A stretch of 64,000 bases of DNA from Escherichia phage bumzen, in sequence record MN850635.1; one strand, 5' to 3'. Positions within the stretch are counted from its first letter, which is position 1. Each line of letters begins with the position of its first letter. Shown here piece after piece: positions 3,352 through 3,433 of the stretch. The notes under the pieces are model-generated. The model searched no databases. It was given only the letters and a program-made list of their open reading frames with translations, and had not been told where the DNA came from. A program made the position numbers and the translations under genes.

Positions 3352-3433
3352 CGGGGCGTATCTCATCTGTCTTCTAAACAGACGTTAACCGAGTAAGTGG
3401 AGTATGCGGGTTCGAGTCCTGCCGCCTCGACCA
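3352..3433 (+). tRNA. tRNA-like with Arg anticodon TCT, no recognisable D-arm
   Basis: Acceptor CGGGGCG/CGCCTCG; anticodon stem TCTGT/ACAGA, loop CTTCTAA; T-arm GCGGG-TTCGAGT-CCTGC; only about 5 nt where the D-arm should be, 23-nt variable region. Confidence 0.4.

Follow-up and report, generated by a model that had tools for sequence, protein, structure and literature searches.

A transfer RNA (tRNA)-like gene at positions 3352-3433 of the 64,000-nucleotide (nt) stretch of Escherichia phage bumzen DNA analysed here (MN850635.1; hereafter the window) is likely to be a functional tRNA-Arg built on a scaffold other than the cloverleaf, a reading that the comparative evidence strongly suggests. 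Judged from the sequences of its relatives, the RNA belongs to a conserved and widespread class of phage RNAs with arginine anticodons and is not a broken gene. The first-pass annotation had listed it as an armless tRNA, a tRNA rearranged by endonuclease-associated events, or a pseudogene; it saw a real and unusual object but under-rated it. Because conservation and covariation extend through about 100 distinct homologues, the architecture is more than a chance resemblance.

Read 5’ to 3’ on the plus strand, as are all features of this RNA and of the leader that precedes it, the gene runs CGGGGCG-TATCTCA-TCTGT-CTTCTAA-ACAGA-CGTTAACCGAGTAAGTGGAGTAT-GCGGG-TTCGAGT-CCTGC-CGCCTCG-A-CCA. A 7-base pair (bp) acceptor stem, a 5-bp anticodon stem with a 7-nt loop containing U33, and a 5-bp T stem with a TTCRA loop are all present, as first described. 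The 5’ strand of the acceptor stem (CGGGGCG, 3352-3358), placed in agreement with the Rfam alignment, pairs with 3423-3429 in the terminal segment CGCCTCG-A-CCA (3423-3433), which includes the discriminator A at 3430 and an encoded CCA at 3431-3433 and is defined by sequence, Rfam alignment and covariation. The anticodon arm (3366-3382, stem TCTGT/ACAGA, loop CTTCTAA) carries the anticodon TCT at 3373-3375, which as UCU would read AGA and probably AGG as well. The T arm GCGGG/TTCGAGT/CCTGC (3406-3422) fits the Rfam tRNA model.

The D-arm hairpin (positions 10-25) is missing, and only 7 nt separate the acceptor and anticodon stems, where about 5 nt had been reported; the region ahead of the T arm is indeed 23 nt long. 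The connector comprises a junction TAT (3359-3361, read as U8-A9-U10), the triplet CUC (3362-3364, connector nt 4-6) and a single unpaired nt at 3365, an A in this copy. CUC forms the 5’ strand of a D-stem analogue whose 3’ strand is GAG at 3391-3393, so that nt 3365 marks the boundary between this helix and the anticodon stem. On the 3’ side of the anticodon stem, the linker CGTTAACC (3383-3390) makes an asymmetric internal loop opposite nt 3365. Beyond GAG lie a D-loop-like strand, UAAGUGGA (3394-3401, read as A14, A15, N16, U17, G18, G19 and A20), and a second linker, GTAT (3402-3405), which ends in a conserved A-U before the T stem.

Standard tRNA-finding tools accommodate this order poorly. 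Covariance scoring with the Rfam tRNA model (RF00005) gave 33.4 bits for 3352-3430, above the gathering score of 29, and reached this fit only by deleting the D arm: 15 D-arm positions were reduced to 4 nt, and 20 nt were inserted ahead of the T arm. ARAGORN called no tRNA at 3352-3433, and none in five homologues. An alternative fold with a normal D arm, the observation that the first-pass annotation had named as fatal to its proposal, was sought with Rfam, ARAGORN and manual re-registration, and none of these produced a canonical fold.

Homologues for covariation analysis came from two pattern scans of IMG/VR. The main-family pattern, TATCTCA-N17-CGTTAANCGAGTAA, returned 47 loci with 29 distinct 78-nt sequences (alignment A2). 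A superfamily pattern, CTTCTA-N14-18-AANNGGA-N8-12-GTTCGA, with matches filtered for acceptor, anticodon and T pairing, returned at least 97 distinct sequences with varied connectors, of which 92 were aligned with MAFFT (alignment A3). In A2 the acceptor, anticodon and T stems are almost fully divergent, and variation is nearly absent from the connector, the anticodon loop and the 23-nt segment. Pairing is retained throughout: 97.5% of cells are paired in A2, with 14 pairs double-changed and none of 500 shuffles as good, and 97.8% are paired in A3, where 19 of 20 pairs show double changes and a shift of the partners by 1 to 3 columns brings pairing down to 50% or less. Among the 92 sequences, all seven acceptor pairs have two-sided changes and four of the five T-stem pairs have double changes, each stem being 99.1% paired. 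All five anticodon-stem pairs carry compensatory changes across homologues; the copy in phage garuso, for example, has GCGGT/ACCGC in place of TCTGT/ACAGA around an unchanged loop, which amounts to two compensatory double changes.

The alignments also reveal the counterpart of the D stem. Connector nt 4-6 show covariation with the triplet directly ahead of a conserved TAANYGGA motif (UAANUGGA in the window), through ten complementary combinations: CTC/GAG, CGG/CCG, CAC/GTG, CCC/GGG, CGC/GCG, CAG/CTG, CAT/ATG, CTT/AAG, ACC/GGT and TCC/GGA. All three pairs form in 81 of 97 sequences, and none of 2000 shuffles matched the observed pairing. In A3 each of the three pairs is double-changed, with pairing in 94.6% of cells. 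This helix had played no part in the selection of sequences. Because the connector covaries with 3391-3393, the anticodon arm must be nested inside the 3-bp helix. The nucleotides of the D loop are predicted to sit 3’ of that helix, in the place usually occupied by the variable loop, and the fold deduced from these alignments is a three-way junction and not a cloverleaf. The label ‘armless’ was therefore the closest of the options first offered, correct in that the D hairpin is gone and incorrect in that a 3-bp analogue of the D stem persists. A covariance model built on the family separates it clearly from ordinary tRNAs, scoring the window copy at 82.6 bits and the 25 canonical tRNAs of the window at 32 bits or less.

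Outside the helices, the family is constrained at some positions and free at others. T8 and A9 of the junction are invariant in A3, and the third junction base is usually U (84 of 97 parsed sequences), with C in 9 and a purine in 4. At the unpaired nt corresponding to 3365, 51 sequences have A, 35 have C, 9 have G and one has U; one more has GC there. The linker 3’ of the anticodon stem varies from 3 to 8 nt with subfamily-specific sequences (CGTTAAYC, AGTA, TTCA, TGAAA and others), and the linker ahead of the T stem, 4 to 8 nt long among homologues, ends in AT in 96 of 97 sequences and in TT in the other. Within the D-loop-like strand, both A2 and A3 show TAA and GGA without exception and conserve the T ahead of GG at more than 90%; GGA was not part of the A2 search pattern. 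Nearly every member has CTTCTAA, CTTCTAC or CTTCTAT as its anticodon loop, the rest having a CCU or ACG loop. The discriminator is mostly G or A, with a few T or C, and many members, though not all, encode CCA.

Two other pairings within the RNA were considered and set aside. A mini-hairpin, YCGA-GUAA-NYGG, might have served as a variable arm or a relocated D arm; it shows one-sided changes only, with none of its pairs (A2 columns 38-41 with 46-49) double-changed, and the superfamily favours CUC/GAG. A longer helix of GCGUAUCUC (3357-3365) with GGAGUAUGC (3399-3407) competes with the acceptor and T stems and is unsupported by subfamilies having other connectors.

Several observations weigh against the proposal of a functional non-cloverleaf tRNA-Arg. 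The 3-bp helix is short, and 16 of the 97 sequences form only two of its three pairs in this register, most of them belonging to a TATGCCG/AGC subfamily. A single-sequence energy fold is no better than those of shuffles (z = 0.04) and prefers the small hairpin within the 23-nt segment that was rejected above. Homologues were retrieved with patterns that included CTTCTA and GGA, so UCU predominates, and these motifs are invariant, partly by construction. The amino acid charged is something we infer from the anticodons and the motif. Finally, one unrelated 154-kb phage contig (L041) has a canonical tRNA-Arg(UCU) 15 nt from a non-canonical one; the two forms are therefore not always mutually exclusive.

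The distribution of the RNA argues that it is maintained. The window segment belongs to a Felixounavirus and is 99.9% identical to Escherichia phage tootiki over 3100-4030, and distant blastn matches to the tRNA-like part alone reach 85-88% identity in unrelated phages. Copies are found in phi92 (Justusliebigvirus) and KpS8 (Mydovirus), both unannotated, in 121Q (Asteriusvirus, KM507819), annotated as tRNA-Leu(taa), and in Klebsiella phage Roth39 (PQ657804), annotated as tRNA-OTHER. Overall, 259 of 50,697 phage records contain the non-cloverleaf RNA, nearly always without annotation and always within phage tRNA clusters; carriers include Felixounavirus, Justusliebigvirus, Asteriusvirus and Mydovirus as well as Erwinia, Proteus, Serratia and Streptomyces phages. 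A search of bacterial and archaeal genomes (one genome for each of 185,579 species, main-family pattern only) found just two contigs, both from metagenome-assembled genomes, and the family is therefore essentially phage-specific. Across GenBank records of carriers (121Q, Roth39 and Mydo, NC_048741, are examples) annotation is inconsistent: where it exists it reads tRNA-OTHER, tRNA-Leu(taa) or plain tRNA, or the RNA is overlapped by a coding sequence for a hypothetical or HNH protein. Since most records leave the RNA unannotated, published tRNA counts omit the putative AGA decoder of these phages.

These data bear directly on whether the gene is decaying, that is, a functionless pseudogene or the product of an HNH-endonuclease-associated rearrangement. 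The failure of ARAGORN, the low Rfam score, the lack of annotation in almost all GenBank records and the adjacent HNH gene could all be cited for decay. An open reading frame (ORF) does lie downstream, its ATG at 3448 leaving a gap of 14 nt where 15 had been reported; the ORF (3448-3795) matches the Pfam HNH model at 17.6 bits, under the 21.4 cutoff, and its counterparts in relatives carry an HNH endonuclease annotation. Damage by such an enzyme is contradicted by garuso, phi92, 121Q and KpS8, which have the same architecture with no adjacent HNH gene, and by comparison with the orthologous locus of phage Sf16, where the HNH gene adjoins an intact cloverleaf tRNA-Arg(UCU). Nor does a pseudogene account for purifying selection and compensatory changes in unrelated phages, the latter affecting four helices in about 100 distinct sequences drawn from a family with 259 phage records. 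We find decay scarcely credible.

Arginine is the only meaning shared by the anticodons found on this scaffold. An anticodon-agnostic parse of 2.5 Mb of phage DNA recovered 104 distinct scaffolds, with UCU in 96 (one of them mis-registered by the parser), CCU in 4 and ACG in 4, and no anticodon for another amino acid; the ACG and CCU members were by-catch of UCU-biased search patterns. These three anticodons span two codon boxes. Some metagenomic phages have two scaffold copies with different anticodons, UCU with CCU or UCU with ACG (L049:13348-13429, L112:1230-1385, L086:4757-4994, L151:11438-11596, L137:14081-14287, L158:2552-3534 and L110:10028-10182). On their anticodons, such pairs are a putative small isoacceptor set made entirely on the unusual fold.

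The anticodon and the discriminator also agree with arginine identity, and the D-loop-like strand offers a candidate A20. The identity set of E. coli arginyl-tRNA synthetase (ArgRS) consists of A20, C35, U36 or G36, and A or G at 73, with A20 and C35 as the main elements. The anticodon UCU supplies C35 and U36, and the A at 3430 is a suitable discriminator. UGGA at 3398-3401, invariant in A2, would place an A20 candidate right behind G18-G19, and AAYUGGA is likewise the D-loop motif of the cloverleaf tRNA-Arg(UCU) that takes the corresponding slot in phage SWJM-02. The assignment of the bases of the motif to A14, A15, G18, G19 and A20, with the tertiary contacts and ArgRS recognition that these imply, is a tentative one; under this mapping the U8-A14 and A15-U48 contacts, the contact of G18G19 with the T loop and the ArgRS determinant A20 could all be preserved. 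The U of the second linker may be the counterpart of U48 and its A may be A21-like, each with a tertiary role. An engineered tRNA without a D arm has been accepted by E. coli EF-Tu, by the ribosome and by a synthetase (PMC11551756).

Could the RNA instead be charged with an amino acid other than arginine, so that it recodes AGA? Alanine would be suggested by G3:U70 together with A73, and serine by a mitochondrial analogy. The copies in the window, 121Q, KpS8 and Roth39 do have G3-U70, and animal mitochondrial tRNAs that lack the D arm, with anticodon UCU or GCU, read AGN as serine (PMC7609411). G3:U70 is not conserved, however: phi92 has G3-C70, and A2 columns 3/76 are GC in 14 sequences, GU in 7 and otherwise in 8. 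Since the mini-hairpin lacks double changes, there is no hairpin variable arm for a bacterial seryl-tRNA synthetase. ACG and CCU anticodons on the same scaffold share only an arginine meaning, and the gene is interchangeable with a standard tRNA-Arg(UCU). Together these findings make recoding very improbable.

That interchangeability is seen at the genomic position behind the leader. In Felixounavirus and Mooglevirus this slot holds either the non-cloverleaf RNA (the window, garuso and FelixO1) or a cloverleaf tRNA-Arg(UCU) (SWJM-02, 3HA14 and Sf16). Thirteen Ounavirinae loci from IMG/VR divide into 9 with the canonical and 4 with the non-canonical form, with no locus having both and none having neither. 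The two genes behave like alternative alleles of one function. The tRNA cluster of the window (1776-7048) contains 25 ARAGORN tRNAs, the lone arginine one being tRNA-Arg(ACG), and ARAGORN found no other UCU tRNA in the window. AGA is the rarest arginine codon in E. coli; it is the most used arginine codon of the window, at 39.6% of arginine codons and 16.8 per 1000.

A tRNA-Arg mimic that acts outside translation would also explain some of these features. Such an RNA could lure away a host factor that binds the anticodon arm or elbow of tRNA-Arg, serving as decoy or sponge for, say, a toxin, an anticodon nuclease or a modification enzyme, or it could titrate ArgRS; either way the Arg-tRNA pool of the infected cell would be protected or re-tuned. 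That phage tRNAs counter tRNA-targeting defences is known, the odd body is combined with a strictly kept anticodon loop, the gene is restricted to phages, and the contig L041 has a canonical tRNA-Arg(UCU) as well. A nuclease decoy would nevertheless have no need of a conserved acceptor stem, discriminator, frequent CCA, T arm and A20-bearing motif. Furthermore, at all 13 Ounavirinae loci the gene and the canonical tRNA-Arg(UCU) replace each other and do not occur together, window-type phages without the gene would lack their own decoder for the arginine codon that they use most, and three arginine anticodons suit an isoacceptor family better than a decoy for a single nuclease. We therefore rate a mimic as unlikely, in either its decoy or its pool-tuning form, though it is the strongest of the competing explanations.

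Upstream of the gene, a sigma-70-type promoter, TTGACA-17-TATACT (3119-3147), matches 11 of 12 consensus positions and is kept in Sf16 and garuso. No terminator-like site was seen from this promoter to the tRNA, and a transcript from it would run through a 200-nt leader into the tRNA, which makes co-transcription probable and expression of 3352-3433 plausible. The leader (3155-3351) is a conserved structured element that resembles the mRNA-like domain of transfer-messenger RNA (tmRNA) and lies outside the tRNA; a comparison of Felixounavirus with Mooglevirus shows it to be better conserved than the tRNA itself. A U-A-A-A-U spacer precedes a resume-type, tag-like frame at 3197-3232, GCA AAC GAC AAT GTT TTT CTG GCA GTA GCT TGA TAG, which would encode ANDNVFLAVA followed by two stops; the tag of E. 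coli tmRNA is ANDENYALAA. The stop codons lie in a hairpin loop, followed by an H-type pseudoknot (GGCGTAC..GCCCAC..GTATG..GTGGGC), and hairpin and pseudoknot covary across Sf16, Omen, Vi01, P5026 and Pollock. Among the matches listed, related tags have 10 codons each and follow AND-x-x-[FLVM]-L-[AM]-[VA]-A.

The leader core recurs in Kuttervirus (Vi01), Klebsiella siphophages, Pollockvirus, Erwinia and Hafnia phages and SSU5. E. coli genomes contain it as well (338 of 5426), mostly plasmid-borne and unannotated; the Pollock copy ends in an intrinsic terminator. Two-piece tmRNAs have a coding piece whose D-loop analogue is matched by the 5’ end of the leader. The acceptor strand is lacking, and the leader looks like such a coding piece from which that strand has been lost. 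In Citrobacter phage Moogle (L008), ARAGORN predicts a permuted tmRNA with the tag ANDNVFLAVA, a prediction composed of a permuted tRNA-like domain, three tRNA genes and the leader. The possibility that 3352-3433 is itself a tmRNA acceptor domain with alanine identity was rejected: G3:U70 is not conserved, the anticodon arm is conserved, and the RNA is found without the leader. Directly 5’ of the tRNA, at 3324-3350, lies a near-perfect long hairpin, ATCTTTAAG-GGCTTTC-TAA-GAGAGTC-TTTAAAGAT. Sf16 and FelixO1 have a different long hairpin in the same place, so that a hairpin persists here even though its sequence changes. It may help to process or stabilise the leader or the precursor of the tRNA.

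This setting raises the alternative that 3352-3433 is mainly a processing or structural element, a tRNA-shaped RNase P site that fixes the 3’ end of the leader or stabilises the transcript, with the anticodon arm a relic. The RNA does lie directly 3’ of a promoter-driven structured leader with no terminator between them, and a tRNA-Leu holds the equivalent position in Erwinia phage Omen. Punctuation has no need, though, of a conserved arginine anticodon loop, a compensated anticodon stem and a D-loop-like motif. A pure punctuation role fails because the RNA occurs without the leader in most lineages, among them phi92, 121Q, KpS8, Roth39 and dozens of metagenomic phages. We consider this explanation improbable, falling below the mimic and above recoding.

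The favoured explanation of a tRNA-Arg on a non-cloverleaf scaffold can be put in structural terms, in which expression, processing, arginine charging and tertiary contacts are all predicted from sequence comparison. The acceptor and T arms are standard, so that RNase P, the enzymes acting on the CCA end, EF-Tu and the ribosome could handle that half as they do a normal tRNA. CUC of the connector pairs with GAG past the anticodon arm, lengthening the arm by 3 bp across a 1-by-8 internal loop. The strand UAAGUGGA...AU would bear the D-loop and core nucleotides A14, A15, G18, G19, A20 and U48; because it keeps them, it could still engage the T loop, build the elbow and offer A20 to ArgRS. In this way the three-way junction would retain the L shape by a different strand path, and the RNA would supply a decoder for the phage’s commonest arginine codon, which is rare in the host. 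The unusual body may confer an advantage, for example escape from a host tRNA-targeting nuclease, and may have been selected for escape from host tRNA-targeting defence or tRNA turnover. The broader claim, that phages of enterobacteria and of many other hosts possess a natural class of arginine-specific elongator tRNA without a cloverleaf, charged by host ArgRS and used by the ordinary bacterial ribosome, is one on which we are evenly divided.

Other RNAs of the window suggest that its tRNA region harbours several non-standard tRNA-shaped RNAs. A permuted tRNA-like domain at about 2590-2720, the counterpart of the domain in the Moogle prediction, has a T arm (2642-2658), an acceptor hairpin (2659-2677) and a D arm (2680-2694) in the order T arm GAAGG-TTCGATT-CCTTC, acceptor 3’ strand ACTCGGC, loop AGAG, acceptor 5’ strand GTCGAGT and D arm GTGT-AATGGTA-GCAC; it is closed by a long flanking helix of AGACCGTT with AACGGTCT and embedded in a longer RNA. 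Its acceptor helix covaries (ACCCTTC-G-CCA-AACA-GAAGGGT in Moogle, ACACG..CGTGT in Sf16). In the window copy the acceptor helix is capped by a 4-nt loop. This copy has no CCA, so it may be a relic of the tmRNA predicted in Moogle or a Y-RNA-like (YrlA-type) tRNA mimic. An ORF near this domain (195-1610) encodes DUF2828 and DUF7788 domains.

Positions 3935-4012 contain a second tRNA-like gene of non-canonical form, preceded by a promoter-like site of its own. The acceptor stem is 8 bp long (GTGGGACG/CGTCCCAT) and is followed by G73 and CCA; the T stem has 4 bp. The anticodon stem AACGG/CCGTT encloses a 9-nt loop, CCUCCAAAA, that would give the anticodon CCA (Trp), and the window tRNA cluster contains no canonical tRNA-Trp. 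The counterparts in Sf16 and 3HA14 have GTAAG/CTTAC around an unchanged loop, which represents four compensatory double changes; Rfam gives the gene a weak tRNA-Sec-like match of 21.3 bits. In Salmonella phage Vi01, an unannotated 143-nt tRNA-like RNA (L174:881-1023) precedes that phage’s copy of the tmRNA-like leader by about 130 nt. Its acceptor stem is TGCGGTG/CACCGCA, its D arm CACAC-AGACTGGC-GTGTG and its T arm GTCGG-TTCGAAT-CCGAC, with about 90 nt in place of the anticodon arm; it has no CCA, and ARAGORN calls no tRNA there.

To our knowledge, non-cloverleaf tRNAs have been known only from animal mitochondria, where translation factors have co-evolved with them. If the reading given here is true, the phage RNAs would be the first non-cloverleaf tRNA class at work in a bacterial cytoplasm, and ArgRS, RNase P, EF-Tu and the ribosome would tolerate a different strand topology in nature. 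It would also provide a ready-made and possibly orthogonal scaffold for genetic-code engineering, and expose a blind spot of tRNA finders: as ARAGORN misses these genes and annotation omits or mislabels them, phage tRNA repertoires and codon-usage analyses systematically lack an AGA decoder. It would then be asked why arginine tRNAs alone have adopted this form, with A20 recognition and evasion of anti-phage tRNases as candidate answers. The presence of the family in well-studied, culturable phages (FelixO1, wV8, phi92 and 121Q) makes experiments straightforward. Textbooks treat all bacterial-type tRNAs as cloverleaves. A 2024 paper describes all known bacterial tRNAs in the same way (PMC11551756), a 2020 review of non-canonical tRNAs does not mention phages (PMC7609411), and we found no description of such a phage or bacterial tRNA in the literature searched, which left most subscription journals outside its coverage.

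Among known RNAs, the canonical tRNA-Arg(UCU) (E. coli argU, T4, SWJM-02) is the closest in presumed function. It shares the 7-bp acceptor stem, the 5-bp anticodon stem, the loop CU-UCU-AA, the GTTCGANNC T arm, a discriminator A or G, the CCA end and AAYUGGA with A20, and in SWJM-02 also the genomic position and the presumed decoding role. Unlike it, the phage RNA has no D hairpin and no separate variable loop; because the strands that flank the anticodon arm form the 3-bp D-stem analogue, connectivity is reversed relative to the canonical tRNA. Class II tRNAs and allo-tRNAs likewise have a long segment between the anticodon and T stems, which is 23 nt in the phage RNA. Class II tRNAs keep a normal D arm and a paired variable arm, whereas the corresponding phage hairpin lacks covariation support and the 23-nt segment instead gives a D-stem-analogue strand and the D-loop motif.

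In the D-arm-less mitochondrial tRNA-Ser, the anticodon helix is extended by pairing of the connector. Animal mitochondrial tRNA-Ser(AGY/AGN) (GCU in bovine, UCU in Ascaris) resembles the phage RNA in having no D hairpin and a short connector and in reading AGN (PMC7609411). It differs in being charged with serine, in lacking the G18G19 elbow motif, in its often degenerate T arm and in its co-evolved factors; the phage RNA has a canonical T arm, UGGA and TTCGA motifs and arginine anticodons only, and would use host cytosolic machinery. The engineered ‘mini HisT’, evolved in E. coli, also lacks a D arm and is usable there, but is artificial, histidine-specific and a simple deletion that needed a host pnp mutation for stability (PMC11551756), in contrast to a natural RNA with arginine anticodons that retains a D-stem analogue and the D-loop motif.

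The tRNA-like domain of tmRNA likewise joins normal acceptor and T arms without a D hairpin, uses a single-stranded GG D-loop analogue that touches the T loop, and sends a helix towards the place of the anticodon arm, features shared by the phage RNA, for which the T-loop contact is a predicted one; the window copy even shares its G3-U70 and A73. The tmRNA domain, however, has no anticodon loop, needs G3:U70 for alanine and carries its D-loop analogue on the 5’ side, whereas the phage RNA has an intact and conserved anticodon arm, a variable G3:U70, and its D-loop analogue on the 3’ side.

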